Numbered from the stretch's first letter, positions 8,030-60,123 are shown. The stretch is DNA of 64,000 nucleotides from Verrucomicrobiota bacterium (GCA_036166355.1 JAYZHR010000025.1:131-64130); one strand, 5' to 3'. Numbers and translations are program-made. Notes: generated from the letters alone by a model not told the origin.

Positions 8030-8099
8030 ATGGCGAAGGAGCCTTTCGTAAATAGTGATGCTTGACCAGTTGATTTGTTCTTAAGATAGATCATAGAAG

Positions 8100-14113: not shown

Positions 14114-14117
14114 ACAC

Positions 14118-20815: not shown

Positions 20816-20834
20816 GACTTCGCTCCAACAGGGT

Positions 20835-23507: not shown

Positions 23508-23548
23508 CCGCCACTTTCTGCCAGTGGATTTGTCAATGATTGTTGCCT

Positions 23549-33872: not shown

Positions 33873-33965
33873 TCCAAGCTGACTTATGCCCCTTGAGCTG
33901 CACGGAAGTGTAGTCCCCGTTCAGATGTAGGCAAGTCGCGCTTATTTAACTTCACTAAAAATAGA

Positions 33966-38008: not shown

Positions 38009-38009
38009 A

Positions 38010-42760: not shown

Positions 42761-42790
42761 TATTAGACGACCGGGAGCCATTATATTTTT

Positions 42791-44361: not shown

Positions 44362-46056
44362 TCAATATAAAGCGATAGCTCGACCTATGCCACCATGGGA
44401 TCCTTTAATTTTTACAGGAGCGAAAATAAAGAACGCTTTTGGCGGCAGCTGGTCAAGTTTTGTTAGAAACTCAATGCCAACCATGCCTCGTGTTGCTAAT
44501 GCCCAGTAGGTAAACAATGCATCTTTTTGATTTACCCCGCCGAGTGTTGGGGCATCTGTGCCAACACAACGAATTCCACGTTCGGCCAAGTAAAAAATTG
44601 CTGAAGAATCTGGCGCTGGCCAACCTTCGCTGAGGCCATTGATCGGATTTTCCATGCAAGCTTTACCTTCAGGAAGAGCTTTGAAATGAGCATCCACATG
44701 GCCGGTATGAAAAATGACAATCTCTTTAGGCTTAAGAGATCCAAATTTTGCCTCGTAGTCTTTGATAAGAGAGGCAGTGATCACAGGAGAAGCAGGCCAT
44801 TGTTTTGGATTGGTTTGCCCGACAAGTTTTCGCACGTCAATCACGCGTGCGTTGCCGGATGTCTGTGAGAGAGGAACCTTTTCGGCTGTTACTAGACTTG
44901 TTCCTCTTTTTCCAAAGTTGGTTTCATACTCTTTTAGCCAACCCCTTACCTCGGGAGAGTAGCTCGAATTTTTAAAGCCTGGTTTTGGGAGTGCATAGGC
45001 GGGAGGGACTAAGCTTGTGCCGGCATGGCTGTCCATTAGGTGGGTATGATGAAAAATATCTAAAGCTGGTTCATAAAAGAAGTCAGCTTTGGTATAAGGA
45101 TGTCGATGTCTAGAGACACCTTTGCCTGGCCAAGTGAGAGGAGTATTAGCTGCCATGACTACGGACAGATCGACCACCTTCTTTTGCTTGGCAGCCTCAA
45201 TTAGAGGTTTTGCGTATTCTCCGATGATCGCAAATGCCCGACCTTCTCCATACGGTCCTTCAAAATGGCGGGGGCCCATCATACAGTAAAATGCTCCAGT
45301 AGCAGGAAGGCTTTTTAGGTTTGTAGCCCCTTCGGTGAAAACCAAGCCTCGTAATAGACCTTCGTCGTGAACGGCTGCTGCAAGATCTGGCATTGGGCCC
45401 ATTGTTGGGCTGTCGCATCCAACGGCAGTGATCCCTTTTTCAGCCATATATGCCATGCAATCCGGGTCTGGGTCTGGCCACGCAGGGGATTTTTTTTCCA
45501 GTGGTAAAGCAAGAAATCTGCGCCCTTCTGGTAGTTGTTTATAATATTTGTCGCTATATCCACTACGTAACAAAACAACGTCTCCTTTGCCAAGTGGTCG
45601 ATGTAATTTTTCCCATGCAATAATATGTTCTTTTTTTACCAGTGGGCTTACTCCGTTTGGGGCTTGGTCTAGCAATCTAGTGACATCAATGACACAAGCT
45701 TCCCCGACAAGTTTCCAGGCCGGTGTCTTATCGGTGAACTCTAGTCCTAGAGGCCCAGCATTTCGTAATCCGCTATTTGGACGAGGTATAGAGTGAGGGG
45801 GTACATCAATTTGGGTTCCGGTGTTGCCATCGATTTGCAATAGGTCACTATTGTAGGGACTTGACGGGCCGATTTTAATGTAGTGGTTAATGTAAAAACG
45901 AGGGAAGCCAGTTGCCCAAGTGCATGGATAATTTTCGGCAACGATCAATGAGAGGTCGACAAAGCGATTCTTTTGATCGTTAGCAATGACCGTTTGTCTC
46001 GATAAAATAGATGCGACTAATACAAACAGGAGAAGTAGTATGTTTGATTTATTCAT
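44362..46056 (-). CDS. secreted protein with two tandem cyclase / kynurenine-formamidase-like (Cyclase family) domains
   Basis: Trimmed to the ATG at 46056 (MNKSNILLLLFVLVASILS signal; the longer form overlaps the E2 gene). Both halves are colinear with the Cyclase family: VDLS start, GDVVLLRSGYS / KEIVIFHTGHV, and EKGITAVGCDSPTMG / ERGIRCVGTDAPTLG. Confidence 0.6.
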   Translation of the reverse strand: MNKSNILLLLFVLVASILSRQTVIANDQKNRFVDLSLIVAENYPCTWATGFPRFYINHYIKIGPSSPYNSDLLQIDGNTGTQIDVPPHSIPRPNSGLRNAGPLGLEFTDKTPAWKLVGEACVIDVTRLLDQAPNGVSPLVKKEHIIAWEKLHRPLGKGDVVLLRSGYSDKYYKQLPEGRRFLALPLEKKSPAWPDPDPDCMAYMAEKGITAVGCDSPTMGPMPDLAAAVHDEGLLRGLVFTEGATNLKSLPATGAFYCMMGPRHFEGPYGEGRAFAIIGEYAKPLIEAAKQKKVVDLSVVMAANTPLTWPGKGVSRHRHPYTKADFFYEPALDIFHHTHLMDSHAGTSLVPPAYALPKPGFKNSSYSPEVRGWLKEYETNFGKRGTSLVTAEKVPLSQTSGNARVIDVRKLVGQTNPKQWPASPVITASLIKDYEAKFGSLKPKEIVIFHTGHVDAHFKALPEGKACMENPINGLSEGWPAPDSSAIFYLAERGIRCVGTDAPTLGGVNQKDALFTYWALATRGMVGIEFLTKLDQLPPKAFFIFAPVKIKGSHGGIGRAIALY

Positions 46057-46063
46057 AGATATT

Positions 46064-47272
46064 TTATATGGAATCTTCACTAATATGTTTCGGTGGCTCT
46101 TGTATGTATTTACATAAGGTTTCAAGGAACCTGGCAGCAGGGGCTCCATCAACTATCCGGTGATCGAACGTAAGACTGATTGGTAGAAGATCTTGCCAAT
46201 CAGCTTTGTTGTCGAGCCAAACCATTTTTCGTTTGATACGTCCTATTCCAAGAATAGCGCATTGAGGAGGATTGATAATTGGAGTGAACATGTCTATCCC
46301 CAGTCCCCCGAGGTTGGTTACGGTGAACGTGGCGTTCTGCATCTGGTGCGCTTCCAATTTTCCCTCTAGTGATTGCTTAATCAAATTATCTGAATATTTA
46401 GCCAGTTCAATTAAGGGTAATTTGTCGGCATTTTTAATAACTGGAGTTAGTAGCCCAGAAGGCGTGTCTACTGCGAAAGCGATATGAATTTGGTTTATTA
46501 GAAAAATACCTTCTCCTCTCCATTGGCTATTTATTCTCGGATGATGCTTGAGTGATTCTGCTACTAGCCGAATTAGGATATCATTATAAGTAGGAACAGG
46601 GTCTTCAATCCCAATTGATTGCTTTAAATTTTTTCGAATATTAATGAGCCTGGACGCATCTATTTCACGGTGCAATGTTACTGGAGCGGTTAGATTGGCC
46701 CCTTCTGACATCTGTCTGGCAATGACTTTTCTAATGGGGGACAGAGGTTCTGTTTTTCCACTTAATGAAACGGAGAAAGTCGTTGGTTGAGTCCGTGCGG
46801 CCTCTTGTATGTCCTTCTCGCGAATCCTCCCTGAACGGCCTGTCCCTTCGATTTGGGTCCAGTCGATACCTAGTCTAGAAGCCATATTCATGGCCCGGGG
46901 CGAGATTGTTTTACTAATAGATCTTGTTTTGGTTTCAGTCTTAGTGGGCTTGAGTTGCGCCTGGTTTGCTTGCTTGGGCTCTGTTTTTTGGGTTCTCTGA
47001 AATGCGTTTTTCCATGGCTCTATATCCTCCTTGTCGGCAAGAAAGGCTAGTCGTTGGCCGACTTCAACAGTATCTCCAGGATTTGGCGCGTCTGGGGGAA
47101 GTCGCAGATATCCCGCATCGAATGACTCAATTTCCTGTGATGCTTTTTCTCCTTCTAGAACAAATAACATATCTCCGACTTCAACTTTTTCACCGTCTTC
47201 CTTTAGCCACTCACAGAAGGTGCCTTCTTCCATTGACCAGCCTAGGCGGGGAACTGTTACTTCTGTTGACAT
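46064..47272 (-). CDS. 2-oxoacid dehydrogenase complex E2 component (dihydrolipoamide acyltransferase)
   Basis: Lipoyl domain with VLEGEKASQEIES, an E3/E1-binding segment ISPRAMNMASRLGIDW, and a catalytic domain ending in LTFDHRIVDGAPAARFL. Confidence 0.85.
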   Translation of the reverse strand: MSTEVTVPRLGWSMEEGTFCEWLKEDGEKVEVGDMLFVLEGEKASQEIESFDAGYLRLPPDAPNPGDTVEVGQRLAFLADKEDIEPWKNAFQRTQKTEPKQANQAQLKPTKTETKTRSISKTISPRAMNMASRLGIDWTQIEGTGRSGRIREKDIQEAARTQPTTFSVSLSGKTEPLSPIRKVIARQMSEGANLTAPVTLHREIDASRLINIRKNLKQSIGIEDPVPTYNDILIRLVAESLKHHPRINSQWRGEGIFLINQIHIAFAVDTPSGLLTPVIKNADKLPLIELAKYSDNLIKQSLEGKLEAHQMQNATFTVTNLGGLGIDMFTPIINPPQCAILGIGRIKRKMVWLDNKADWQDLLPISLTFDHRIVDGAPAARFLETLCKYIQEPPKHISEDSI

Positions 47273-47274
47273 GA

Positions 47275-49251
47275 TTATTCGTCCAATAGTTCCCGAATAG
47301 CCGATTCGATGGTATTTGTATTAGGTACGATTGATTGCTCTAGTGTTGGACTATATGGGATTGGAGTGTGTAAACTGTTAAGTCTTTTGATTGGAGCATC
47401 GAGTTGGTCGAAGCCTTCATCGGCTACTCGGGCGGCGATTTCACTGGCTAAGCTACAAGGAGCGAAAGCTTCATCCACAACCAGTAATCTTCCAGTTTTG
47501 GTGACCGACCGAAGTATAGTTTTCATATCCAGCGGAGTTACTGTCCGGGGGTCAATTATCTCAATCGAAATGTTCTCTTCTTCAAGTTTTTCTGCAACTG
47601 ATAAGGCGTGTTGCACCATAAGAGACAGAGCTACAATCGTTATATCCGATCCTTCGCGTGTTACTCGTGCTAAGCCAAAAGGAATTTCGTAATCTTCCTC
47701 AGGAACCATGCCTTTTGTTGCCATTAATTCCCGGTGTTCCAGAAATAGTACGGGATCATTGCAGCGCAAAGCATAATGAAAGAGTCCTTTGGCATCATAT
47801 GGATTTGATGGCACTACTACGTGGATGCCGGGGATATGAGAGTATATAGAATAATAATTTCCGGAATGATGAGTTGCTGCGCTGTGCCCGATTCCTATGC
47901 AGCCGCGGAGAAGAATGGGCATCTTTAGCCGCCCACTACTCATGTATTGCATTTTGGCTATCTGGTTGATGATTTCTCCAAATGAGTCGTTTATGAAGTC
48001 AATGAACATGAAATCAATCACAGGCCGGGTCCCTGTCATGGCTGCTACACATCCTAGTCCCACAAACCCGCGTTCGCATATTGGTGTATCACACAGACGA
48101 GTTGCTCCGTGTTCCTCAAATAATCCAAGAGTGGTGGTGAAATTGCCGCCTCGTTGGCCTATCCCTTCACCCATCACAAAAATGTTGGGATTACGTTTCA
48201 TTTCAAATGCCAAAGCTTCGCGGGTTCCGCCAACAAAGGTTGATTCTCGGGCGCCTGGCTTTGGAGTATTTGGAGCTTCTGAAGTTTGATTTGAGAAAAG
48301 GTAATTAGTGGCAGTTTCGGGGGATGGATAATCGCTTTTACAAGCATTCGTCTGTGCAAGAGATACGTTTTGAACTATTTCATTCTCAATAAATTTGAGT
48401 TCCTTTTCAGTCGTTAGGCCATCATCTATCATCGCTTGTCCAAGCTGCTTTATCGGGCAAAGTTCTTTCCATCTTTCAACCTCTTCCTGGGTGCGATAGG
48501 TAAAGTCATCCATCCCTTCCGCGTGAGCTCGGGTTCTGTAGGTTTTACACTCAATTAGAGTTGCTCCATCACCTTTACGAGCCCTATGAATTGCTTCTCC
48601 AGCAACGCTATGAACATCTTTAGCGTTATTGCCATCTACCTCAAATCCAGCAATCCCGTAAAGCTCTGCGCGCCGCCCGACATGAGGATTGCTACTGGAA
48701 TATTCAAATGCCACCTCGGTTGCGAACTGGTTATTTTCGCAAACAAAAATAACCGGCAATTTCCAGATGCTGGCCATGTTCAGGCCCTCATGAAAAGCGC
48801 CGTTGTTAACCGCGCCGTCGCCGAAAAACGCAACTGCTATGTTTTCCTTTTGCAATAGCTTGAAGCTGTATCCACCTCCACAGGCTTGAAGTATACTGGG
48901 CCCCACGATTCCACTGGTGCCCATCATTCCGATCTCAGGCTGGAATAGGTGCATACTGCCGCCACGCCCTTTTGAGCATCCTGTTTTACGGCCAAATAGT
49001 TCTGCAATTAGTTGTTCAGGCTTCATCCCTTTGGCTATGGCATGTCCATGTCCACGGTGAGTACTGAAAACGACATCCTTATCTTGCAAATGAACGCAGA
49101 CACCCGCGGCAATAGCTTCCTGCCCAATGTAGGTATGGCATGCGCCGTGAACTAGTCCTTGCTGATGTGCTTTGGCAAGCACCAGTTCTGTCTGTCGGAT
49201 TGACTGCATCCGTCGATAGATTTCTAACAATCTTTCCTTTGTAGGCTCCAT
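47275..49251 (-). CDS. 2-oxoacid dehydrogenase E1 component, fused alpha + beta subunits (TPP-dependent)
   Basis: Trimmed to the ATG at 49251 (MEPTKERLLEIYRRMQSIR), 7 nt after the SDR stop. The alpha part (GQEAIAAGV, GDGAVNNGAFHE) is fused to the beta part (IFVMGEGIG, RLCDTPICERGFVGLG) in one 658-aa ORF. Confidence 0.85.
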   Translation of the reverse strand: MEPTKERLLEIYRRMQSIRQTELVLAKAHQQGLVHGACHTYIGQEAIAAGVCVHLQDKDVVFSTHRGHGHAIAKGMKPEQLIAELFGRKTGCSKGRGGSMHLFQPEIGMMGTSGIVGPSILQACGGGYSFKLLQKENIAVAFFGDGAVNNGAFHEGLNMASIWKLPVIFVCENNQFATEVAFEYSSSNPHVGRRAELYGIAGFEVDGNNAKDVHSVAGEAIHRARKGDGATLIECKTYRTRAHAEGMDDFTYRTQEEVERWKELCPIKQLGQAMIDDGLTTEKELKFIENEIVQNVSLAQTNACKSDYPSPETATNYLFSNQTSEAPNTPKPGARESTFVGGTREALAFEMKRNPNIFVMGEGIGQRGGNFTTTLGLFEEHGATRLCDTPICERGFVGLGCVAAMTGTRPVIDFMFIDFINDSFGEIINQIAKMQYMSSGRLKMPILLRGCIGIGHSAATHHSGNYYSIYSHIPGIHVVVPSNPYDAKGLFHYALRCNDPVLFLEHRELMATKGMVPEEDYEIPFGLARVTREGSDITIVALSLMVQHALSVAEKLEEENISIEIIDPRTVTPLDMKTILRSVTKTGRLLVVDEAFAPCSLASEIAARVADEGFDQLDAPIKRLNSLHTPIPYSPTLEQSIVPNTNTIESAIRELLDE

Positions 49252-49258
49252 TCGATTG

Positions 49259-50074
49259 CTATTCGTTAAAAATCTCGCTGCCATGTGATCCCCCTGCATT
49301 TTGTGCCAAGTTGCCTCCATCCATGGGAATAAGGGTTCCGGTGATCCATGATGACGCGTCTGATGCTAAAAAAACAGCGAGTCCTCTAATGTCTTCTGGG
49401 CTTCCAAATCGACCTGAAGGAATGCCAGAAAGAAAACGATCTCGGATTTTGGGGTCGGCATGAATACGTTCTTGAAGTCCATTGTTCATTATTTGTGCTG
49501 GAAGAATAGCATTAACTCGAACACCACGATGAGCCCACTCCGTGCTCAATTCGCGAGTCATTTGAGCTACTGCCCCCATGGCCATGCTATAACCAATATG
49601 GCCTCGGCCTAGTGCCGTAACACTTGCAAGAGATCCTATATTAACAATACTGCCACCACCTTGTTTGAGCATTCGGCGCCCGGCCTCTTGGCAGCAGCAA
49701 AACCGACCAAGAACAATATTTCTCCAAGAGTATTCTATATCCTCAAGTCGAATTTTTTCAGGTTTTTCCCGAATGGCTTCACCCGCAACATTCCCAAGGA
49801 AATCAATACGCCCAAATGAAGTGTCAATATCCTTAAACATTTCTATTATGGATTTTGGATTAGAGATATCACATTTAGATACAAGAGCACGTTGCCCAAA
49901 TGCTTCGACTTCATCAGCAACGAGCTTGGTTCCCTCCTCGTTAATATCGACCAGCACCAAGTCTGCACCTGCTTCCGCAAGTGCTAATGACATTGCCCGT
50001 CCCATGCCGCTTGCGGCACCGGAAACTACGGCTACTTTGCTGCTCAAGTTGAAAAGTGAATTTGTCACTGGCAA
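49259..50074 (-). CDS. short-chain dehydrogenase/reductase (SDR) family oxidoreductase, atypical active-site motif
   Basis: VAVVSGAASGMGRA cofactor motif, GNVAG, and an SDR-length 271 aa. The active-site region reads GYSMAMGAV where classical SDRs have Y-x-x-S-K-x-A-V. Confidence 0.8.
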   Translation of the reverse strand: MPVTNSLFNLSSKVAVVSGAASGMGRAMSLALAEAGADLVLVDINEEGTKLVADEVEAFGQRALVSKCDISNPKSIIEMFKDIDTSFGRIDFLGNVAGEAIREKPEKIRLEDIEYSWRNIVLGRFCCCQEAGRRMLKQGGGSIVNIGSLASVTALGRGHIGYSMAMGAVAQMTRELSTEWAHRGVRVNAILPAQIMNNGLQERIHADPKIRDRFLSGIPSGRFGSPEDIRGLAVFLASDASSWITGTLIPMDGGNLAQNAGGSHGSEIFNE

Positions 50075-50080
50075 GTCAGC

Positions 50081-51832
50081 TTACTCGATGTTTAAAATCT
50101 CGTAAATGAGAGGAATTTGTTTTTGGTAAAAAACCAGTGCAGCTAAGCCAAGATAAAAACCTGAGCAGGATATTAATCCAAGGCGACTTATCCATCCGGG
50201 GCGTAATGGCTTAGGAAGTAGGCGAACATTTGTTCGTAAGAGAAGCAGCGCTACAGTGCCTAGTGCTAGATTATTTAGATTAGCAATAACAAGAATCATG
50301 ATCTTAGGTTTGCTATAAAACAGGAATATAGTTGCGCAAACAAATGTCCATATCATGTAGAGGGCCAGTATAGTGTAGTAAATTTTTTTAACATCATGTG
50401 TTTTCATCCTTTCTCGTACACGTTGGCTCCCCGACCAAATTATATCGGTCCAACGTCGGCATACATCCTCTACTATTGACATTTGACTGGGGAGTAAAAC
50501 CATCAATCCCACTAGAAGTGTGCTAATCCACATTATTTGAGCGAGCGCGGGGGAAAAGCTGGGGGCATTTCGAAGTCCGTCTGCGCTGATGATTGCTTGA
50601 GCCCAATCAAGTCGTTCGGTCTGATGGAACATTTCTGAGTGCGGTGAAAACTGAATTGAGATGAGTGCAGGTAAAGCCATTCCCATGATACATCCAGGCA
50701 TCCATATTAGTAGCTGGTCAGACAGGATATAACGCCACCAGCCTTTCCAGCGTTGGAGGTTTTCATCGCTCAGAGGGAAAGTTTTGCCCACGTGGCTCAG
50801 GGAAATTTTTCTGCCGCCTATTGCGCTTGGGATAGCTCCGACTTGACTCCCCATTCCCCAGCCTTTGTCGCGCACATAATTACTATAGGTAGAATTCCCT
50901 AAGCCGCCTCCACCGGCAAAGCCAGCAAATGCACCTATTAATGCAATTTGCGTAAGTAAAATAACAGGCCAGGTCCCATTTTGACTGCGGTATGAGAATA
51001 CATTGGTAACATTTTCTCCATCCCATCTTCCATCCCCGTCAATATCTTCAAACTTTGTAATATTTCCATAAGCATCCTTTTCTATAATTTTTTCAACATT
51101 ATCAAGTCGGCCGTCTCGGTCAAAGTCCTCCCCAGGGTCAAGTCGGCCGTTACCGTTTTTATCCTCAGCCATTACAACCGGGATAGTCCCGAATTTAAGG
51201 AAACCTCCGAATACGTTTCCCCAGTTTGTTGCGCTAACAAAAAAAATGCCGACAAAGAGGCTGAACCCAAGGACAACAATGACCTTTAAGGTCATGATCT
51301 TCTCTATAGTATTATAAATTTTACCACCAACAAGAATAGGCAGGCTGACAATAGCCAATAATAAGTAGCTTAGGATAATGACCAGTGTTCGGTCTGTTTC
51401 GCCGGCGGGATGACCTAAATATATTGAGGCTAGCACGGCAGCGCCGTGCGTCGATAAACCAGGAATGAACGCTCCAAAATTGAGCAATAAAATAATACAA
51501 ATCCAAAATTTTGGTCCAGGTTTGGCTCTCATGAAGCCAGTAAACACAGGTTCTCCGCAGTAGAGCGCGTAGCGGCCACACTCCATATTATAAAAAACCT
51601 GAAGGACAATTGCTATGCCTGCAATCCACATTAGACCTCCTCCAAAACGTGCTGTAATCTCCGAGCCAAGAAGCCATTCCCCTCCTGCCAGCTGAATGCC
51701 ACACATAACGATTCCCGGCCCTATAAATCCTCTTAGATTTCGCCAACCCAGTGGCTTAGCTTCTGGTAGATCAGCTTTTCCCCATTCAGGAATTCCCATT
51801 TTTTTTGGATCGTTTTCGTTAGAGTCATTCAT
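50081..51832 (-). CDS. polytopic membrane transporter, Nramp-like (APC/LeuT fold) with non-canonical metal-site residues and an Asp-rich loop insertion
   Basis: 583 aa, with about 11-12 predicted TM segments by eye. GFIGPGIVMCGIQLAGGEWLLGSEITARFGGGLMWI...LQVF aligns by eye with the Nramp TM1-TM2 region. It contains the insertion EDKNGNGRLDPGEDFDRDGRLD...DIDGDGRWDGEN. Confidence 0.5.
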   Translation of the reverse strand: MNDSNENDPKKMGIPEWGKADLPEAKPLGWRNLRGFIGPGIVMCGIQLAGGEWLLGSEITARFGGGLMWIAGIAIVLQVFYNMECGRYALYCGEPVFTGFMRAKPGPKFWICIILLLNFGAFIPGLSTHGAAVLASIYLGHPAGETDRTLVIILSYLLLAIVSLPILVGGKIYNTIEKIMTLKVIVVLGFSLFVGIFFVSATNWGNVFGGFLKFGTIPVVMAEDKNGNGRLDPGEDFDRDGRLDNVEKIIEKDAYGNITKFEDIDGDGRWDGENVTNVFSYRSQNGTWPVILLTQIALIGAFAGFAGGGGLGNSTYSNYVRDKGWGMGSQVGAIPSAIGGRKISLSHVGKTFPLSDENLQRWKGWWRYILSDQLLIWMPGCIMGMALPALISIQFSPHSEMFHQTERLDWAQAIISADGLRNAPSFSPALAQIMWISTLLVGLMVLLPSQMSIVEDVCRRWTDIIWSGSQRVRERMKTHDVKKIYYTILALYMIWTFVCATIFLFYSKPKIMILVIANLNNLALGTVALLLLRTNVRLLPKPLRPGWISRLGLISCSGFYLGLAALVFYQKQIPLIYEILNIE

Positions 51833-51841
51833 TTGGTCCGT

Positions 51842-52807
51842 TTATTTAAAAACACCATTTACGATATTGGGTAGCGACTCCTTATTTATAGATTTGAGTA
51901 TCGTCCGTGCGGCTGTTTCGCGCAGTGTAATTGATGCATGTTCACTGGCTGAAGCAATATGAGATCCTAAAATGACATTTTCCATCTTCAGAATAGGATG
52001 ATCTACTGGAATGGGTTCTGGTGAAAACACATCTAGCCCGGTAGCGCTAATTTGGCCCTTATTAAGCGCGCTCGACAGAGCATCTGGATCAACGAGATCT
52101 CCTCGCCCGACATTGATCAGTATCGCGCCCATTTTCATTTTTGAAATCGAAGATTCATTAATCATCCAGCGAGTTTCTTCGGTGGAAGGACAGTGAAGTG
52201 AGATAACGTCACTCTTTGATAACAAGTTATCGATGGGTACCGGTTCACACCCAGCCTGATGAATTACTTTTTCACTAATGACGGGATCAGCGACCATTAT
52301 TTTACTACCAAAACCAATTAGCCGCTTGGCTACAGCTCGACCAATGCGTCCAAAGCCTACAAGTCCAACTGTCATTTTAGATAATGACTGCATTTGGTTA
52401 AGCGGGACGGCCAGCCCCCAATTGTTATTGCAGGTAGCAAGATGGTTTTGAATAAGTCGGCGAGTGGTCGCTAATATTAGGCCAATTGTGTGGTCAGCAA
52501 CTTCGTTTGTGCAGAATTCCGGGACATTGCAGACGGGAATTCCCTTTAAAGCGGCTGCATTAAGATCAACATTATCGTAGCCAATGCCATAACGAACAAT
52601 AATTTTGGCTTGTTCCATTGAGTTCACGACCTGAGCATTGATTGGGGCAAATTGTGTAATCACATAATCTGCATCCCGTACGATTTTAATTAAAGACTCG
52701 GGAGTTTTACACTGGTGTCCAGAAAGCTCACAACCGGTTGGGTTGAGAATATTTTGTTCAATACTAAGATTCGGGAAGGTATAATCGGTGATGACGACTT
52801 TTTGCAT
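51842..52807 (-). CDS. D-isomer-specific 2-hydroxyacid dehydrogenase family protein
   Basis: GLVGFGRIGRAVAKRL NAD-binding motif, plus the catalytic triad context INVGRGDLVD, LDVFSPEP and LGSHIASAS. Confidence 0.85.
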   Translation of the reverse strand: MQKVVITDYTFPNLSIEQNILNPTGCELSGHQCKTPESLIKIVRDADYVITQFAPINAQVVNSMEQAKIIVRYGIGYDNVDLNAAALKGIPVCNVPEFCTNEVADHTIGLILATTRRLIQNHLATCNNNWGLAVPLNQMQSLSKMTVGLVGFGRIGRAVAKRLIGFGSKIMVADPVISEKVIHQAGCEPVPIDNLLSKSDVISLHCPSTEETRWMINESSISKMKMGAILINVGRGDLVDPDALSSALNKGQISATGLDVFSPEPIPVDHPILKMENVILGSHIASASEHASITLRETAARTILKSINKESLPNIVNGVFK

Positions 52808-52831
52808 TGTTACTTTAGCCTTTTATTCAAC

Positions 52832-54235
52832 TTACGCCAGAACCCCATGTATTACATTTCCAGCGACATCCGTCAGACGAAAATCCCGGCCATCGTGAAA
52901 ATAGGTAAGGTGTTCGTGATTCAGCCCTAGTAGGTGTAGAATTGTGGCGTGAAAGTCATGAGTGTGAACTGGGTCGACCACCGATCGGAGGCCATGTTCG
53001 TCCGTGGCTCCGTGAGTGTGCCCTTTCTTTACTCCAGCTCCAGCTAAGAAAGTTGTGAAAGCCCAGTTATGATGTTCTCTCCCTTTATGGTCGGCAGAGC
53101 TATTGAATGGGGTTCTTCCGAACTCTGTTGTCCAAACAACCAAAGTGTCATCCAAAAGTCCTCGAAGTTTCAGGTCTGTGATTAGGCCGTAAATCGGACG
53201 GTCTACCTGTTTGGCTAGGCGTTCATGGTCCATCATGTTTCCGTGAGAATCCCAGTTTCCAGAGGAGCCCGTGTGGATTAATTCGATAAAGCGTACTCCG
53301 CGTTCAACCAAACGCCGCGCGGCAAGGCATTGCCAACCGAAGCCATCAGTTTGATTTCGCTCAAGCCCGTAGAGATGGTGTGTAGAATCGGATTCGCGTG
53401 AGAAATCAAAAGCTTCAGGGACAGCCATCTGCATGCCAAAAGCAGTTTCAAAAGCGCGCATACGAGTTGTCCATTCTTGATTTCCTAAGTTTTTGTCCAA
53501 GTGCCGCTGGTTACGCTTGCGAAGTGCTTCTAATTCAAGTTTCTGTAGATTTTTTGGAACAAGCGGCGAGATATTTGGGACTGGATTTTTACTAGGAATT
53601 ACACGTGTGCCCTGATGGGCTCCTGGCAAGAAATCTGAGCCCCATACCTGTCCACCGGCATAAGGTGATTGTGGAGCAATAACGATAAATGATGGTAGAT
53701 TTTGATTCTCGGTGCCAAGTCCGTAACTCACCCATGCGCCAATGCTTGGACGCGTTACTGTAAAAGATCCGGTGTGCATGCCGAGTGTAGCGTTGTAGTG
53801 GTTTGAGTGGCCTGTATGCATACTGTTTATGAATGCAATATCATCAACACATCGTGCCACTTCTGGGAATAGAGAACTAACCTCTTTGCCGCACTGACCG
53901 TATTGTTTAAATTTCCATTGAGGTGTTTTAAGATAAATGCGTTCGTATCCAGGGCGATTTTGGATTTCCGGGTGGTCTCCCTTGTCGATTTCTTTACCGT
54001 GATCCTTATAGAGTTTTGGCTTGTGATCAAAAGTGTCGAGGTGTGAAACCCCTCCACTCATATTCATGAAAATAACTCTTTTAGCTTTTGGGGTAAAATG
54101 AGTTTTTCTAGTAGAAAGTAGATTTTCCTTATCTGAACCCAATAGATTATCCACTAGCGCAGGCATGATCACTGAACCAGTAACCATTGATTGTAAAAAA
54201 TGTCGTCGACTCGGGTTGTAACGGAAAAAATTCAA
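52832..54235 (-). CDS. DUF1501 domain protein with Tat-type signal
   Basis: SRRHFLQSMVTGSVIMPAL, HFTPKAKRVIFMNMSGGVSHLDTFDHKP, and the C-terminal GRDFRLTDVAGNVIHGVLA. Lies 1 nt after the upstream giant gene. Confidence 0.85.
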   Translation of the reverse strand: MNFFRYNPSRRHFLQSMVTGSVIMPALVDNLLGSDKENLLSTRKTHFTPKAKRVIFMNMSGGVSHLDTFDHKPKLYKDHGKEIDKGDHPEIQNRPGYERIYLKTPQWKFKQYGQCGKEVSSLFPEVARCVDDIAFINSMHTGHSNHYNATLGMHTGSFTVTRPSIGAWVSYGLGTENQNLPSFIVIAPQSPYAGGQVWGSDFLPGAHQGTRVIPSKNPVPNISPLVPKNLQKLELEALRKRNQRHLDKNLGNQEWTTRMRAFETAFGMQMAVPEAFDFSRESDSTHHLYGLERNQTDGFGWQCLAARRLVERGVRFIELIHTGSSGNWDSHGNMMDHERLAKQVDRPIYGLITDLKLRGLLDDTLVVWTTEFGRTPFNSSADHKGREHHNWAFTTFLAGAGVKKGHTHGATDEHGLRSVVDPVHTHDFHATILHLLGLNHEHLTYFHDGRDFRLTDVAGNVIHGVLA

Positions 54236-54236
54236 T

Positions 54237-56852
54237 TTAATTCAAAAACAAAAATTCGTTGCTGCTTAGAAGTACGCGGCACCAGGCATTCCAAGCTTGG
54301 GGTTCATCGGCTGCTAATGTGTAAGTTTGAATAAATTTGCCTGCTTGTTCGATCTCTTTTTCAGAGGCCGCTCTTCCTAGTGCTAATTCATGAGCCAAAT
54401 GGATACGGTTATTTATATCAATCGAGTGTTGAGTTAAACGTTTGGCAAAGGCCGCGGCTTGGGCATGCAAAAATTCATTGTTTAAAAAGTAAAGCGCTTG
54501 TGTGGGGACATTGCTCAAGCGCCGTTGCCCCGTACTTGCATTGGTGTCAGCCCCGTCAAATAATGCCATCAAGGGTCTGCGCTGGATGCGCTGCGCCATT
54601 AGAAATACACTGCGATAATAATGGTTGTAATTGGCGCGAAATGGAGTGTGTTGAGTATAATTTTTGGCAGCTGGAAAGGGGTGTCCACTTGGTGTTGAAT
54701 AATCAATCTTTTGTCCAAGGGAGAGTAGTGTATCCCGAAGCTCTTCAGCACTTAATCGGCGAGACTTAAATGCCCCGTAAAGCTTTTGTTCGGGCCCTTC
54801 CTTGCAAGCAATTTGGTATGCTTTGGAGTTCATGATCATCCGGTGCAATTCCTTAATTGACCAGTTATTCTTGATAAACTGCAATGATAGCCAATCGAGT
54901 AATGCTGTGTGGGTTGGCTTTTGTCCCTGAGTGCCAAAGTCATTTGGGGTAGTAACAAGTCCTCGCCCAAAATGATTTAGCCAAACTCGATTAACAATTA
55001 CTCGGGCAGTCAGTGGATTCTTAGCACTGCTAATCCATTCTGCCAGCTGTAGGCGCCCACTACCCTCTGTCACGCTTTGTCCGCCAAGAAGATCAAGGTT
55101 TTTCCTAGGGATGGGCTCCCCTAAATCTTTTGGATTGCCTCGGAGGTGCATTTTTTCATTAATTAATTTTCCTTCAGTTACGCCGTATGCATGAGCAATT
55201 TTAATTTCCTTTTTTGTCCATTCGATTATTCGTTTTTCTGCTACTTGTACGGCAGCCAATGCTTTTTTTGGTTTAGCCAATAATGGCAAAAAATTGCCCT
55301 TCAAATGAATCAGTTTCCATGAGACGCCGTTACCATATTTATGGCCATCTTTCACAAGCCCCTGAATATTTATGGAACCATTAATTGGGCTAGTCCATCC
55401 TACGCCGACAGGGCCATCAGCAGCCGGGTGGACGAAAAATGTTTTCGGAGGGAGAGTTGTCCAAGCTTTAATTGGGGTATTATTTGCGTTAACAAATGCG
55501 GACGGTAGAGGGTTAGTGCGCCAGACATTATTCCCGATGTGACCTTCATTGTCCTTAACAGGTATTTCTAGTAGTTTGCCTGGCAGACGTGCATCCAGAA
55601 ATAACCATGTATATGGGTTGCCCATCTTGTCTGGATGTGGGTTGCCAGAGAGAAAATCATCCACGACCTCATCTGTAATATTCCAGCTTAGGCCTTTACT
55701 TCGAAGCTCAGTCATTTCCATTTCAATGATGGTTGTGTCCGCCCCGTAGTCGCCATCTTTGGCATCAACAATGAGTTGAATCATATCTCCTTTATGGACA
55801 TTAAGATTCTCAATAAGATATGCCTCCTGAGCACCAACATTAATCTCTCCATCTTTGATTAATGTGGCTGGTTGACTTGCCATCTTCGCGAATTCGTCGG
55901 AAGCAGTGCTTAACAGGTGCTTTGCTGATTTTAACTCTTGTTCGAGTTTTAATTTATGTTCTTCCCAAGCTTTCTTCCGCTCTTTGATTTCTTTCGAATT
56001 ATTCAATGGAACCAAGTCGGTGATGGGCCGGTTTCCCTCCGACCCAGGGAAAGAATAAAGAGAGCTTGCGAAAATGCCGTATAATCCATAGTAGTCACGT
56101 GCGGATATGGGATCATACTTGTGATCATGGCAGCGAGCACAGGCGATTGTTAGTCCCAAAAAAGATTTGCCTAGTGTATCGATGGTATCCTCAATGGTAA
56201 GGTAGTGATCCTTTTTTGCATCATGACCGTGCCGGCGCGATATAGCTAGATAGCCGGTTGCTACAATCAGATCTGCATAGCGATCTGGTGAACAATCACT
56301 ATCTTTCTTTGCTATTATGTCCCCAGCTAATTGTTCACGAATAAATTGATTAAAAGGAGTATCATTGTTGAATGCCTTGATGACATAATTGCGGTAACGC
56401 CAGGCATCATCCACAGGCATATCAGAATTCTCTCCGGCTGTATCTGCATACCGGACGACATCTAACCAATGTCGACCCCATCGTTCGCCATACCTTGGTG
56501 AAGCTAGAAGTCTTTCGATAACTTTGGTGAAAGCGTTTGGTGAAGGGTCGTTTATAAAGGATATGATTTCGGTGGGAGTGGGGGGTAATCCTGTGAGATC
56601 ATAGGTAGCCCGTCGAATCAGCGTTCGTTTATTAGCCATTTCATTTGGAGAGAATCCAGCTGCCTCCATTTTTGCCAAAAGGAAACGGTCAATGTCTGTC
56701 TTAGGCCAATTGTGGTTGTTTACAGTTGGGATAGCTGGTTCAGTTGGTTTAACGAATGACCAATGAGTTTTGGGTGTTGAGTTTTCCTCGCTTTTGGTTG
56801 AAGTGATCAACGTAAAGTAAAGAAAAAGTAATATTATAGCTGCTCGTATCAT
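54237..56852 (-). CDS. DUF1549 + DUF1553 large secreted protein (no N-terminal PSCyt domain; one CxxCH motif)
   Basis: Signal peptide. DIDRFLLAKMEAAGFSP...LIRRATYDLTGLPPT (DUF1549-like), ACARCHDHKYDP, and NPLTARVIVNRVWLNHFGRGLV (DUF1553-like). Confidence 0.85.
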   Translation of the reverse strand: MIRAAIILLFLYFTLITSTKSEENSTPKTHWSFVKPTEPAIPTVNNHNWPKTDIDRFLLAKMEAAGFSPNEMANKRTLIRRATYDLTGLPPTPTEIISFINDPSPNAFTKVIERLLASPRYGERWGRHWLDVVRYADTAGENSDMPVDDAWRYRNYVIKAFNNDTPFNQFIREQLAGDIIAKKDSDCSPDRYADLIVATGYLAISRRHGHDAKKDHYLTIEDTIDTLGKSFLGLTIACARCHDHKYDPISARDYYGLYGIFASSLYSFPGSEGNRPITDLVPLNNSKEIKERKKAWEEHKLKLEQELKSAKHLLSTASDEFAKMASQPATLIKDGEINVGAQEAYLIENLNVHKGDMIQLIVDAKDGDYGADTTIIEMEMTELRSKGLSWNITDEVVDDFLSGNPHPDKMGNPYTWLFLDARLPGKLLEIPVKDNEGHIGNNVWRTNPLPSAFVNANNTPIKAWTTLPPKTFFVHPAADGPVGVGWTSPINGSINIQGLVKDGHKYGNGVSWKLIHLKGNFLPLLAKPKKALAAVQVAEKRIIEWTKKEIKIAHAYGVTEGKLINEKMHLRGNPKDLGEPIPRKNLDLLGGQSVTEGSGRLQLAEWISSAKNPLTARVIVNRVWLNHFGRGLVTTPNDFGTQGQKPTHTALLDWLSLQFIKNNWSIKELHRMIMNSKAYQIACKEGPEQKLYGAFKSRRLSAEELRDTLLSLGQKIDYSTPSGHPFPAAKNYTQHTPFRANYNHYYRSVFLMAQRIQRRPLMALFDGADTNASTGQRRLSNVPTQALYFLNNEFLHAQAAAFAKRLTQHSIDINNRIHLAHELALGRAASEKEIEQAGKFIQTYTLAADEPQAWNAWCRVLLSSNEFLFLN

Positions 56853-56911
56853 CCCTTGGGGGCTCGACTGAAGCTACCTTCAAGTAGCTTCTGCGCAACT
56901 CAAAAAAATGA

Positions 56912-58897
56912 TTATCGATCAATACGACTATCGAAATAGCGTTTAAGATGTGGTAGATCGTACCAAAGAAGTGCATTTGGGACGACGTGATCAGCCATGT
57001 CACTTCGAAGTGGTTTGGCGACTAAGTCTTTTTCCCAACTATTTATTGGAGATTCTTTTAGTGATAATTTTGATATGCGCTTATCTAAGGCAGCTGCATG
57101 TAAGGCGACCGGGGCGGCTGCGTTTAAGCCAATCAAACTAATATTTCTTTTTGCGTCTAAGCTATCAATAAAATCAATCACTGTGAGAAGGTCGGCGACA
57201 CGTTGTCCAAGCAGTGGTCGGCCTATGTGAGTTGAAACATTGGCGGTCCGATGAGAATGGCTTTGGTACTTTTGATTGCTCCCCTGATCTTTTGTTTCAC
57301 CAAACCCCCGAAGGTCTACAGTTAAAAGGGCTGTCTGCTTATTGAGCAATTTCCGGATAATTCCGGATTTCATGCAGTTATTTATTCCTAGACTATCGGT
57401 AATTATAACGAAATCCAGTGCCTTGTTTGCATGATTGAGAGGCCGGAAAAGTACCGCGGGCACCGGCATTCCATCAGGTTGTTTGAGTATGAATTTATCT
57501 ACTTCTGCCCATTTGGTTTCTATACTCTCAACCTTGTGGATCTTCGCCCTGATGGGTGTTTTTGAAAGCCCTATTAACTTACGCACCTTAGCCAAAGCCT
57601 TTTGTTCATTGGTTTCCCAAAATTTATCACGTTGATCTTTCAGTTTTTGGGCTAGCTGCAAGTTAATAGCAGCGATATCCATTTCAGTTTCAAAGTCCTT
57701 ATAGACTTGGCCGCTTTTTGTAACTTGTAATTCAGTGTCGTTGAAGAGCTGAATGTAATTCGGTTCGATTACGGTAAATGGATCATTATAAAGCCACTGA
57801 AGCATCCAGCGGGTTGCCTCTTGGCGATGTTCGACATGCATCCCATGTTCCGCCTTGCATTCATAGTAGGAGAATCGTCTGGGAGCTCTCAGTAGGGAGA
57901 AGACTGATTGTGCATCGCGTATTGTTTCTCGTGTAGAGTCGATTTCAAAAAAATCTTGAGTTGCTGCAAGGATGGTGGTTGGCCGAGGCGCCCGCATTAG
58001 GCTATAGTCGATATGATCGATTCCGTTTAATCCTTCATTTGCTAGATGTTGGCAGCCATCAGCGGGGCCGCTATGGCCTAAGAATTTATCGGTTCGTTGC
58101 ATTGTATAACACGATGGTGCAGCAGGCCCAATACGGTCATCCAGTGCCATTAGGAATGTGGTCTGAGTTCCTCCTCCACTTGTGCCTGTCATGCCTATTG
58201 GTTTGGAGCTGTCAACTTCAGGGCGAGATAGCAGATAGTCGATAGCTCGGATTCCGTCCCATGCCGAGTACCAGACGACACTGCGGCCAACTAGCCTTGA
58301 CCCATGATTTAGTAAGGTATGTGTAGTCGTACCATACCTTTTAGCATTAGGTTGCTGTGTTCTTTCGCCTTGGGAGACTGGATCATAACTTAGAACCACA
58401 AATCCGTTTTGAGCAAGCAAAGCACAGGCAGTTTGATAAGCCGGGTATGCCTTTCCGTTAGCCGAGTGCCCGCATGCAAATAGCACGCCAGGCCATGGGC
58501 CATTTCCTTTTGGGGGGAGATATAGAAGAGCGGTGACATGATGATTGGGAAGGCTTTCGAATAGCACCTTTTCCACTCTGTAGGTCATCCCATCTAGTCG
58601 TCCAGTGACTTGGGCATTTAATGCTGTTTTATCTGGAAATGTTCCGATTATTCTGCGGTATCTATCGTTTAGGCTAACTAAATGTTGCCTAATGGTTTTG
58701 GTGGATTGAAGGGCTTTAGACAATTGTTTTGCCCGTATTTGGTCAAGGTGACGGCTTTTAGCAATTAGAGTATTCCAAAGTACTTGGTTTTGATCGCCTT
58801 TCAATACTTGAAAATCTGAGGTTTGTTCGCCTCGTCCATTGGCATGGCCAATACTAAACGAAAGCACAATGAGACATGCTTGTAACCTTAGGATCAT
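56912..58897 (-). CDS. secreted protein with two alpha/beta-hydrolase-like halves (acetyl-xylan-esterase/dienelactone-hydrolase-like)
   Basis: Signal peptide. The first half has an intact nucleophile elbow GMTGTSGGG. The second half has the elbow position as LIGLNAAAP, with Asn in place of Ser. Confidence 0.6.
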   Translation of the reverse strand: MILRLQACLIVLSFSIGHANGRGEQTSDFQVLKGDQNQVLWNTLIAKSRHLDQIRAKQLSKALQSTKTIRQHLVSLNDRYRRIIGTFPDKTALNAQVTGRLDGMTYRVEKVLFESLPNHHVTALLYLPPKGNGPWPGVLFACGHSANGKAYPAYQTACALLAQNGFVVLSYDPVSQGERTQQPNAKRYGTTTHTLLNHGSRLVGRSVVWYSAWDGIRAIDYLLSRPEVDSSKPIGMTGTSGGGTQTTFLMALDDRIGPAAPSCYTMQRTDKFLGHSGPADGCQHLANEGLNGIDHIDYSLMRAPRPTTILAATQDFFEIDSTRETIRDAQSVFSLLRAPRRFSYYECKAEHGMHVEHRQEATRWMLQWLYNDPFTVIEPNYIQLFNDTELQVTKSGQVYKDFETEMDIAAINLQLAQKLKDQRDKFWETNEQKALAKVRKLIGLSKTPIRAKIHKVESIETKWAEVDKFILKQPDGMPVPAVLFRPLNHANKALDFVIITDSLGINNCMKSGIIRKLLNKQTALLTVDLRGFGETKDQGSNQKYQSHSHRTANVSTHIGRPLLGQRVADLLTVIDFIDSLDAKRNISLIGLNAAAPVALHAAALDKRISKLSLKESPINSWEKDLVAKPLRSDMADHVVPNALLWYDLPHLKRYFDSRIDR

Positions 58898-58914
58898 GTG
58901 CTGGGAATTATTAC

Positions 58915-59670
58915 TTAAAAACGAAGTGGCGTCACCACCTCAGGCTGTTTATTATATATCTCGTTTAACCGTCGAGTTTCATCGATTCGCAAGTCGTCAA
59001 ATTCATCCGCTTTTTCTAGATCTCCTTTCTTTAATGCCAGACTCCATTTTTGCAGAGCCTGAATATAGTCTTGAAAAGCTCCTTTGTATCCTTCGTCCAA
59101 ATGGTCGACTTTTATTTTTTTTAATTTTGCAACAGCTTCAGACACGGCTTTGGATTGGTCTTGAGGAGTTTGGGATGAATTCATCGTATTGATCATTTTG
59201 GACTCGATGGAAACTACTCGTTCATGAGTTTTAACGACTCCGCCTTTGAAAAGGCCATCCCCGAATCCGAAATTTAACAAAAAAGCGCCTACAGCAAATA
59301 CTCCCACAATCATGGCAGTCAAGGATCCGGAGGTTTTGGAAGCTCTTGTTTCCCTTAGTGCAGTGTTGGACCCAGTCAAGCTTCTTGCAACATTCGTTGC
59401 AGTTGCGGATCCCGCAGTAATATCGTTACTCAAATTACGAAGTACATCATCTGTGTTGGTCCCTTGTGTGGATTGTTGCTGTGAGATTTGCTTCTTTGAG
59501 AGGCCGGGGGGCTTAGGCGCTTTGGTTAATTTTAATTTTGGTTGTGTGGATGCAGGCTCGCTGGGAGGCACGGTAAAACTTCCATTGCAGACTGGGCAAT
59601 CGATTGTTTGGCCGGCCATTTCCTCTGGTATTTCCAGATTTTGACTACAACTTGGACAAGGTATTTTCAT
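58915..59670 (-). CDS. zinc-ribbon membrane protein (function unknown)
   Basis: N-terminal CPSC...17 aa...CPVC zinc-ribbon (MKIPCPSCSQNLEIPEEMAGQTIDCPVCNGSF), an S/T/Q-rich linker, one TM helix (LTAMIVGVFAVGAFLLNFGF) and a helical C-terminal domain. Confidence 0.5.
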   Translation of the reverse strand: MKIPCPSCSQNLEIPEEMAGQTIDCPVCNGSFTVPPSEPASTQPKLKLTKAPKPPGLSKKQISQQQSTQGTNTDDVLRNLSNDITAGSATATNVARSLTGSNTALRETRASKTSGSLTAMIVGVFAVGAFLLNFGFGDGLFKGGVVKTHERVVSIESKMINTMNSSQTPQDQSKAVSEAVAKLKKIKVDHLDEGYKGAFQDYIQALQKWSLALKKGDLEKADEFDDLRIDETRRLNEIYNKQPEVVTPLRF

Positions 59671-60076: not shown

Positions 60077-60095
60077 ATTTTAATGCAGAATTTTG

Positions 60096-60123
60096 AAGGG
60101 ACTCTATACGAGTCCCTTTTTTG
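60096..60123 (+). terminator. intrinsic terminator of rpmB
   Basis: GGGACTC (60098-60104) pairs with GAGTCCC (60110-60116) around a 5-nt loop, followed by TTTTTT (60117-60122). Confidence 0.7.

Follow-up and report, generated by a model that had tools for sequence, protein, structure and literature searches.

Ten consecutive minus-strand genes (g1 to g10, positions 59670-44362) lie in a 64,000-nt stretch of DNA from a Verrucomicrobiota bacterium (GCA_036166355.1, JAYZHR010000025.1:131-64130), hereafter called the window, and include a DUF1549/DUF1553 + DUF1501 gene pair (g3/g4). From our point of view, this array is probably an evolutionary mosaic of three layers, likely to be co-transcribed, and not one dedicated pathway. 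The first layer consists of an Nramp-related carrier (g6), a short-chain dehydrogenase/reductase (SDR; g7) and the fused E1 alpha-beta (g8) and E2 acyltransferase (g9) of a 2-oxoacid dehydrogenase complex, with a secreted cyclase-fold protein (g10) and a 2-hydroxyacid dehydrogenase (2HADH; g5) as frequent accessories, and would represent an old catabolic module of Planctomycetota, Verrucomicrobiota and Bryobacterales. The second layer, g3-g4, would be one of many self-contained cassettes in the genome, made up of a presumably Sec-exported PSCyt2/PSD1 protein and a presumably Tat-exported DUF1501 protein, that ended up upstream of the module in a single lineage of marine Verrucomicrobia. The third layer, g1-g2, would be common only to the nearest relative that retained that flank.

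This reading is carried by the gene content, by the depth to which each layer is conserved and by reverse tests that were negative throughout. In the original prediction, the ten genes had been regarded as a single operon in which the exported pair is coupled to substrate uptake and oxidation. The genes themselves were confirmed by open reading frame (ORF) listing together with Pfam and NCBIfam scans, and the identities given for them all hold at the domain level.

Conservation of the core and distribution of the g3/g4 cassette

Homologues of g6 number about 2,000 at 55-70% identity. An alignment-based scan with one genome per species yielded 80 carrier-anchored loci, which belong to Planctomycetota, Verrucomicrobiota and Bryobacterales. 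Flanks of up to 10 kb on each side were included as far as the contigs reached, and the loci were compared by tblastn of the window proteins and by all-against-all clustering of their ORFs. The order that emerged as conserved is Nramp-like carrier, SDR, fused E1 alpha-beta and E2, with the carrier found in 70 of the 80 loci, E1 in 44, the SDR in 40 and E2 in 36, all on the carrier strand and at fixed offsets. With about 36-44 of about 70 usable loci co-linear across three phyla, the predicted combination of uptake with a hydroxy-acid, 2-oxo-acid and acyl-CoA type enzyme set thus stands as far as its core is concerned. A literature search on the combination of Nramp, pyruvate dehydrogenase (PDH) and cyclase genes retrieved no description of a carrier-SDR-E1-E2 module.

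Two further genes of the array, both on the strand of the carrier, accompany this core frequently. The cyclase-like gene occurs in 20 loci and in Planctomycetes usually sits directly upstream of the carrier, while the 2HADH gene occurs in 16 loci, farther upstream and at variable distance. Planctomycete loci add a divergent regulator of the GntR/FCD type, an Ldh_2 dehydrogenase, a hydrolase of the FAH family whose nearest match, under the cut-off, is 2,4-didehydro-3-deoxy-L-rhamnonate hydrolase, an FGGY kinase and a GFO/IDH/MocA oxidoreductase. The cluster represented by L077, L079, L065, L066 and L059 comprises GntR/FCD, 2HADH, Ldh_2, FAH-family, FGGY, cyclase-like, carrier, SDR, E1, E2 and GFO/IDH/MocA genes, with L077 (Planctomicrobium sp. 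SH668) having the upstream part and the carrier and no adjacent SDR, E1 or E2. In a marine Planctomycetaceae clade (L009, L015, L018, L021, L024, L027, L028), the module is present without the SDR.

The cassette within the array is encoded by g3 (54237..56852, minus strand), an exported PSCyt2 (DUF1549)/PSD1 (DUF1553) protein of 871 aa (PF07583, 265 bits; PF07587, 248.8 bits), and g4 (52832..54235, minus strand), a DUF1501 protein (PF07394, 446 bits) with a TTG start, which begins 1 nt downstream of g3 on the same strand. By motif reading, g3 has a hydrophobic, signal-peptide-like N-terminus and a single CxxCH motif, CARCH at residue 238, as a putative haem site, and g4 carries the Tat motif SRRHFL, recognised by eye. 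The AlphaFold2 (AF2) model of g3 (pLDDT 85.7) consists of helical N- and C-terminal regions around a central beta-sandwich; no fold in the Protein Data Bank (PDB) matched it at E<=0.001, and its middle part is weakly ConA/GH32-C-like. In L170, the g3 counterpart (456-2453) has 665 aa compared to 871 aa in the window, with a carrier that is 86% identical; the corresponding alignment (P0257) spans only 39% of g3, and much of the central region is apparently gone, so that this region may be dispensable. Several g4 homologues bear a precomputed PF00884 Sulfatase match, which fits the view of DUF1501 as a sulfatase/alkaline-phosphatase-superfamily-like protein.

A second pair of this kind lies farther downstream in the window. 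It consists of d2 (39899..42781, minus strand), which combines PSCyt1, DUF1549 and DUF1553 (PF07583, 280 bits; PF07587, 274 bits) with two CxxCH motifs, and its DUF1501 partner d3 (38512..39921, minus strand; Tat motif TRRHFF, by eye), which overlaps d2 by 23 nt and ends the co-directional run. Both pairs share the architecture of the known DUF1501 + PSCyt modules of the Planctomycetes-Verrucomicrobia-Chlamydiae (PVC) bacteria, namely a PSCyt2-PSD1 protein, which may or may not include PSCyt1, and directly behind it a Tat-motif DUF1501, and like these they occur in multiple copies in the genome, often near sulfatases and catabolic genes. The protein g3 differs from other cassette members in that it lacks PSCyt1 and has its central beta-sandwich where others have Laminin_G_3, and the g3/g4 cassette as a whole is set apart from other PVC cassettes only by its lineage-specific position upstream of the carrier-E1-E2 module. 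That such pairs are expanded in PVC bacteria, as the original prediction stated, is in line with the literature, according to which DUF1501 and PSCyt1/PSCyt2/PSD1 modules are abundant and conserved and have no known function (PMC3542564, Kamneva et al., 2012; PMC5615132, He et al., 2017). Our literature search on DUF1501, DUF1553 and PSCyt did not yield a functional study.

Since the pair is so widespread, the question arises whether its position next to the core carries information. Directly upstream of a 2HADH gene, g3/g4 were found only in the marine Verrucomicrobia metagenome-assembled genomes L004, L020, L025, L030 and L170 (in the first four, g4 is 84-85% and g3 67-70% identical); the near-identical L033 is truncated inside the carrier gene. 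In L020, the cyclase gene is followed by a DUF1501 remnant and two unrelated genes, after which homologues of window positions 36786-38378, including folD, appear. General genome synteny thus survives at that distance, and conservation of the adjacency there is weak evidence. The remnant itself (L020, 17388-17606) comprises 73 codons right after the cyclase gene and matches the C-terminus of a d3-like DUF1501 (64%), which suggests that a downstream DUF1501 cassette was deleted in the L020 lineage.

Matches to g4 fall into two tiers, one at 79-87% identity and a very large one at 66-70% that extends across Verrucomicrobiales, Fuerstiella and Pirellulales. As hundreds of matches across phyla lie at 66-70%, an identity of about 68% represents the subfamily background and is no proof of orthology. 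Reverse tests, which start from the cassette, gave a uniform picture. Around P0136, which is 81% identical to g4, the order is SASA, CN_hydrolase, its own PSCyt2/PSD1 + DUF1501 pair and CotH, and the own partner gene is the only one common with the window at P0171/P0173 (70% to g4), P0232 (67% to g4), P0254 (59% to g3) and P0253 (61% to g3). In all of these loci the partner is kept, and there is no 2HADH, carrier, E1 or E2 gene nearby.

The pair that adjoins the module in the Planctomycete loci L062, L070 and L016 resembles d2/d3 and not g3/g4. A metagenome scan for d3-type DUF1501 genes returned 80 loci at 48-84% identity; the DUF1549/DUF1553 partner lies upstream in most of them, and none of the 80 has a carrier, E1, E2 or cyclase gene. 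The similarity of d3 to the module-side DUF1501 in L062 (68%) had been considered as cross-phylum orthology; given the 66-70% background of g4 and the d3-type loci, this was dropped.

The abundance of cassettes around the module provides a further perspective. PSD-type genes (those of DUF1549/DUF1553 + DUF1501 and DUF1592/DUF1588 + DUF1552 cassettes) account for about 8% of the ORFs throughout the 10-kb flanks. When loci with carriers at least 80% identical were merged into 39 clusters, such genes accounted for 10.8% of ORFs at a distance of up to two genes from the module and for 8.2% farther out (Fisher p=0.38). Several independent juxtapositions are therefore what the local density predicts. 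The order of g3/g4 and the oxidation module is not conserved past the range of general synteny. We can thus conclude that the adjacency of cassette and module is lineage-specific and statistically unremarkable, and that it is no dependable clue to the function of the pair. The expectation that this context would inform on the cassette was not confirmed, with g3/g4 adjoining the core in a shallow marine Verrucomicrobia clade only and the reverse tests negative. Of the proposed conservation of gene order in relatives, the part that stands is the g3-g10 block within that clade; elsewhere the order is not found, and the claim of a coupling largely fails with it.

Several points weigh against a mosaic. 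In about three independent lineages (L004; L020/L025/L030; L170), g3-g10 have stayed together as a block with both flanks varying, and co-inheritance within the shallow clade, though only there, thereby receives mild support. Before related loci were collapsed, 12.3% of the ORFs at neighbour ranks 1-2 were PSD-type genes, compared to 6.9% farther out, an enrichment that was gone after collapsing. In several Planctomycete lineages (e.g. L016, L062, L070 and L052), the module borders on different PSD-type cassettes, a divergent DUF1501 and a PQQ/LamG giant follow E2 in L015-type loci, and DUF1592/DUF1552 pairs stand beside the carrier in L031, L046, L069 and L072. A regional enrichment of cassettes is possible as well, the densities being those of locus flanks and not of whole genomes. 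Lastly, the assignment of a substrate to the core is weak, as the matches to PDH E1 alpha and E2 stay under the equivalog thresholds and the window holds no E3 component. As a side observation on the L015-type loci, the DUF1501 part (26-29% to g4) lies about +5.2 kb from the carrier gene start and is co-directional with the module, as is the giant of 1,400 aa (PQQ_2/Laminin_G_3), while a DUF1592/DUF1588 + DUF1552 pair is divergent upstream.

These points bear most directly on the single ten-gene operon of the original prediction, in which the exported cassette and the secreted hydrolases g2 and g10 would release or process a substrate that g6 imports and g5 and g7-g9 oxidise. It would draw on the preserved g3-g10 block, on the other cassettes beside the module, on a g4-g5 spacer of only 24 nt that has no hairpin, and on the weakly ConA-like centre of g3; according to a proposal by He et al. 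(2017, PMC5615132), PSCyt genes moreover take part in carbohydrate use at the level of oligomers or monomers. Against it stand the reverse tests, negative even at 81% identity, the absence of the core from all 80 d3-type loci, the many module loci (most of those in the three phyla) that do without the pair, and an adjacency enrichment that is not significant after collapsing. In addition, tight spacing is the norm in this genome, and g1 and a full-length g2 are common only to L004. We therefore regard a single operon of this kind as unlikely, albeit as the strongest competitor of the mosaic.

One could also speculate that PSD-type cassettes are interchangeable periplasmic modules for substrate capture or processing, which are plugged into catabolic operons in a way loosely comparable to SusC/D of Bacteroidota. 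Their repeated independent placement by the carrier/PDH-like module would then reflect functional coupling, with the carrier importing the product and its Ca-binding-like loop or g10 acting as docking or binding partner. We consider this reading improbable.

The carrier and the enzymes of the core

The mosaic reading assigns to its oldest layer the uptake of an organic acid, and this depends on how the carrier is interpreted. The anchor of the conserved core, g6 (50081..51832, minus strand), encodes a LeuT-fold protein of 583 aa that matches the NCBIfam model NF037982 ('Nramp_1') with 161.9 bits (cut-off 50), mainly over residues 297-538. It has no Pfam family match; against PDB sequences, the family profile found nothing, and a single-sequence search gave only a weak EF-hand-like match in the insert at residues 222-280. 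In a Foldseek search with the AF2 model (pLDDT 82.6), EcoDMT, EleNRMT and DraNramp were the best matches (TM-scores normalised by target length of 0.64-0.75, at 12-14% identity), BfrNramp was also among the top ones, and other LeuT-fold carriers ranked after the Nramp/NRMT proteins.

Nramp transporters bind their metal through the motifs DPGN in transmembrane segment (TM) 1 and MPH in TM6. In the TM1 of the g6 family, F36-G38-P39-G40 are invariant, I41 and V42 are present at >=90% and M43 is again invariant (GPGIVM), and no MPH-like motif was found in the glycine-rich TM6 region, which reads AGGGGLSNSTYSNY. An hhalign comparison of the carrier alignment with Escherichia coli MntH pairs GFIGPGIV with GYIDPGNF; it is not significant (E=0.11) and served only for the register of the DPGN motif. 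The carrier thus appears to lack the metal-site motifs of Nramp, and 'divalent metal transporter' is probably a misnomer for this subfamily. Solely because these motifs appear to be lacking, we infer that an organic anion is a more likely substrate than a metal. Compared to EcoDMT, DraNramp and EleNRMT, with which it shares the LeuT fold, g6 also has an insert of about 70 residues, and its gene sits in a catabolic operon. A precedent for an Nramp-like protein in an operon for an organic substrate is YcsG of Bacillus subtilis, which is encoded in the ycsFGI-kipIAR 5-oxoprolinase operon.

The insert (about residues 216-290) is beta-rich with DxDxDG/EF-hand-like loops, and it is probably Ca-binding and, by analogy to Nramp topology, periplasmic. 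The length of g6 homologues varies between about 530 and about 706 aa, for the most part because of this insert. A second loop, residues 319-343, is of low confidence in the model.

It could also be imagined that g6 is a true divalent-metal (Mn/Mg) importer that supplies the cofactor of a thiamine diphosphate/Mg-dependent E1 or of a metal-dependent cyclase-family hydrolase, with the module as a housekeeping PDH plus its cofactor transporter. The NCBIfam model named 'Nramp family divalent metal transporter' is indeed matched above its cut-off, the proteins closest in fold are Nramp and NRMT transporters for Mn and Mg, the E1 is most similar to PDH, and isatin hydrolases of the PF04199 family are Mn enzymes. 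The invariant GPGIVM in place of DPGN, the missing MPH-like motif and the absence of a Pfam Nramp or PDB profile match argue against a metal substrate, as do the export of g10 and the loss in it of two residues aligned to the metal motif of isatin hydrolase. Furthermore, the accessory genes are catabolic and come with a GntR/FCD regulator, and an E3 gene is not adjacent. We thus give metal import little credence and retain, for the oldest layer of the mosaic, an imported organic acid.

Downstream of the carrier gene, g7 (49259..50074, minus strand) encodes a core SDR oxidoreductase (Pfam and NCBIfam scans) of sugar-acid dehydrogenase-like type, whose nearest PDB entries are gluconate 5-dehydrogenase and KduD. 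It is followed by g8 (47275..49251, minus strand), a PDH-type E1 in which the E1_dh (249.6 bits), Transket_pyr (130.3 bits) and Transketolase_C (130.6 bits) domains form one chain of 658 aa, with PDH E1 beta and alpha as nearest PDB matches. Of the NCBIfam models, PRK09212 (subfamily level) is reached with 337.4 bits over a cut-off of 321, and TIGR03182 with 330.8 stays under 393.85. The core ends with g9 (46064..47272, minus strand), an E2 acyltransferase with Biotin_lipoyl, E3_binding and 2-oxoacid_dh domains, for which the PDH-type equivalog model TIGR01349 gives 239 bits, under 445. Pfam showed no pyridine-nucleotide disulfide oxidoreductase, the family expected for E3, in 44 of the 45 listed window ORFs of at least 150 aa; E3 is not among the conserved neighbours of the module loci either and may be encoded elsewhere in the genome. 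The module accessory g5 (51842..52807, minus strand) is a D-isomer-specific 2HADH (2-Hacid_dh), nearest to PGDH and glyoxylate reductase.

Judged by these matches, the module is similar to a PDH-type complex that has its own importer, to which acetoin-type and deoxy-sugar-acid systems are looser parallels. With heterotetrameric-type PDH (Geobacillus 1w85/3duf, human 3exe), g8 and g9 share the domain sets of E1 and E2; they differ in the alpha/beta fusion, the lack of E3 in the window, the unmet equivalog cut-offs and the linkage to a carrier and an SDR instead of lpd. The sugar-acid-type SDR and the PDH-like E1/E2 would accordingly lead to a pyruvate-class 2-oxo acid and convert it into an acyl-CoA with an E3 supplied from elsewhere. 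The Planctomycete accessories point to the catabolism of a keto-deoxy sugar acid or a hydroxy acid, which may feed pyruvate or lactate to the complex. In the non-phosphorylative deoxy-sugar-acid routes for L-rhamnose and L-fucose, an SDR 4-dehydrogenase and an FAH-family hydrolase lead to pyruvate and lactate, and the Planctomycete clusters share the FAH-family protein and a KduD-like SDR and also have lactate/malate-type dehydrogenases and the PDH-like complex. In contrast to these routes, all matches are under the equivalog cut-offs, the pathway dehydratase and lactonase were not seen, and this window has no FAH, Ldh_2, FGGY or GFO gene.

That the SDR, E1 and E2 form an acetoin/2,3-butanediol-type cleavage system (AcoAB-AcoC-like with a butanediol dehydrogenase) acting on a hydroxy-ketone or diketone is very unlikely: the order SDR, E1, E2 is shared with acoABC(L) + budC clusters, where E3 is not always adjacent, and g7 matches meso-2,3-butanediol dehydrogenase BudC with 169.7 bits (under the cut-off of 270), whereas the best E1/E2 matches are PDH-type, the E2 catalytic domain is standard with the acetoin E2 model covering only the lipoyl part, the nearest SDR structures are sugar-acid dehydrogenases, and a carrier and accessories of sugar-acid or hydroxy-acid metabolism are present.

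The last gene of the ten, g10 (44362..46056, minus strand), encodes a secreted tandem cyclase-fold protein with a signal-peptide-like N-terminus and a PF04199 match of 120.4 bits in two stretches. Among PF04199 enzymes, which include kynurenine formamidase, the isatin hydrolases (4j0n/4m8d) are the nearest solved structures; in contrast to these enzymes, g10 is tandem, secreted and altered in the motif of both domains. When aligned with isatin hydrolase B, HSGTHFDAPHH faces GNTGTQIDVPPHS, so that two residues of H-x3-H-x-D are lost, and the C-domain motif is degenerate (HAGTSLVPPAY). Across 14 homologues, from Verrucomicrobia to Planctomycetes, the variant of the N-domain is conserved, and in L016, L017, L022, L046, L053, L065, L074, L077, L078 and others the tandem proteins read NTGTQ(I/L)DVPPH and not HxGTHxDxPxH. 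On these grounds a canonical Mn-hydrolase site in g10 is doubtful, and the protein could be a binding protein and not a hydrolase.

Spacing, boundaries and surroundings of the array

The maximal ORFs of the ten genes, all on the minus strand, are 58915-59670 (g1), 56912-58897 (g2), 54237-56852 (g3), 52832-54235 (g4), 51842-52807 (g5), 50081-51832 (g6), 49259-50074 (g7), 47275-49320 (g8), 46064-47272 (g9) and 44362-46152 (g10). With ATG starts at 49251 for g8 and 46056 for g10, the predicted gaps of 17, 59, 1, 24, 9, 6, 7, 2 and 7 nt from g1 to g10 are reproduced, while the maximal ORFs of these two genes would give overlaps of 62 and 89 nt instead. The shorter starts are backed by homologues, as the L033 and L020 alignments begin there, with an identical 7-nt gap.

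Such spacing is not specific to the array. Around 35 of the 45 window ORFs of at least 150 aa are on the minus strand, and by a hand count from the ORF list, co-directional gaps elsewhere in the window have a median of about 20 nt, with about 60% at <=25 nt. The proportion in the array (8/9 at <=25 nt) is not exceptional against this background (p ~0.07). As tight spacing is common across the window, close co-directional packing alone is no argument for a dedicated operon. Promoter-like and terminator-like consensus sites occur in the window at the rates expected from shuffled sequence and are hence uninformative. The consensus scan found no convincing internal terminator within the array and nothing terminator-like at the g4/g5 boundary. 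Given the short gaps and the lack of such a site at this boundary, co-transcription of the array appears plausible.

In the 59-nt spacer between g2 and g3, the minus strand can form a hairpin (56870..56891, read from the sequence) with an 8-bp stem and a 6-nt loop, GAAGCTAC-TTGAAG-GTAGCTTC. Its stem is perfect, no T-run follows, and it is absent from the terminator-like list of the consensus scan; it could be an element of RNA processing or stability.

Upstream, the array is bounded by the divergent rpmB gene for ribosomal protein L28 (59819..60076, plus strand; Pfam Ribosomal_L28), and the 150-nt divergent region between g1 and rpmB marks its start. Within it, TTGACA-18-AATTAT lies on the minus strand (59726-59697), and rpmB is followed by a terminator-like hairpin with a T-run at 60095-60119. 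The first gene, g1 (58915..59670, minus strand), encodes a small membrane protein that has a zinc ribbon at its N-terminus (CPSC..CPVC; Zn_ribbon_4 at 22 bits, under the Pfam cut-off of 30.3) and a single hydrophobic or TM segment at residues 117-135. Among the carrier-anchored loci, a g1 homologue occurs only in L004 (48% identity).

The second gene, g2 (56912..58897, minus strand), encodes a secreted, carbohydrate-esterase-like tandem alpha/beta-hydrolase of 661 aa, with an AXE1-like N-half (residues 107-260; 28.5 bits, cut-off 21) and 6goc and cephalosporin C deacetylase as nearest PDB sequence matches. The double alpha/beta-hydrolase that had been predicted here is correct insofar as the two halves are related (22% identity, E=4e-4); the GxSxG elbow is present only in the N-half (GTSGG at 238), so that the protein likely has one active domain and a degenerate C-half domain. 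A full-length g2 was found only in L004, and a partial one (C-half only) in L025.

At the other end, the array goes on beyond g10. After a gap of 119 nt, three more minus-strand genes follow, namely d1 (42791..44242, minus strand), an orphan DUF1501 with the motif TRREML, and the pair d2 and d3. A d1 gene after the cyclase gene is kept only in L004 (92%) and L033 (96%).

The window is otherwise a typical PVC genome segment, which in total holds two DUF1549/DUF1553 + DUF1501 pairs, one extra DUF1501, two DUF1592/DUF1588 + DUF1552 pairs and three sulfatases. Two DUF1592/DUF1588/DUF1585/DUF1587/DUF1595 giants at 11234-15491 and 19415-23573 (minus strand) each have a DUF1552 (HXXSHH) partner, the gene of which lies upstream of the giant in the first pair and downstream in the second. 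Sulfatase genes are located at 6575-9608 and 17882-19312. A second tightly packed minus-strand run (26843-34886), mostly unannotatable and with successive overlaps of 4-50 nt, includes 306-aa and 1,040-aa proteins without Pfam matches, a 464-aa protein without a significant one, a 527-aa LysM protein and a prenyltransferase/squalene-cyclase-like alpha-alpha toroid protein (29761-30753).

Meaning for PVC bacteria

In Planctomycetes and Verrucomicrobia, few unexplained families are as expanded as the DUF1549/DUF1553 + DUF1501 pairs, and a reliable functional context would be valuable. The context found here is unreliable, in that the cassette is mobile and self-contained and its neighbours differ even between copies that are 81% identical. 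For genome mining in PVC bacteria this calls for caution: with cassettes making up about 8% of the ORFs in the flanks, little can be read from adjacency by itself.

More can be gained from the conserved core, with a carrier that is probably mis-annotated and a cyclase-fold partner that is degenerate. The carrier-E1-E2 module is also found in the genomes of the isolates Schlesneria sp. T3-172 and Singulisphaera sp. PoT, and our results suggest that it represents a mis-annotated system for the uptake and oxidation of an organic acid.

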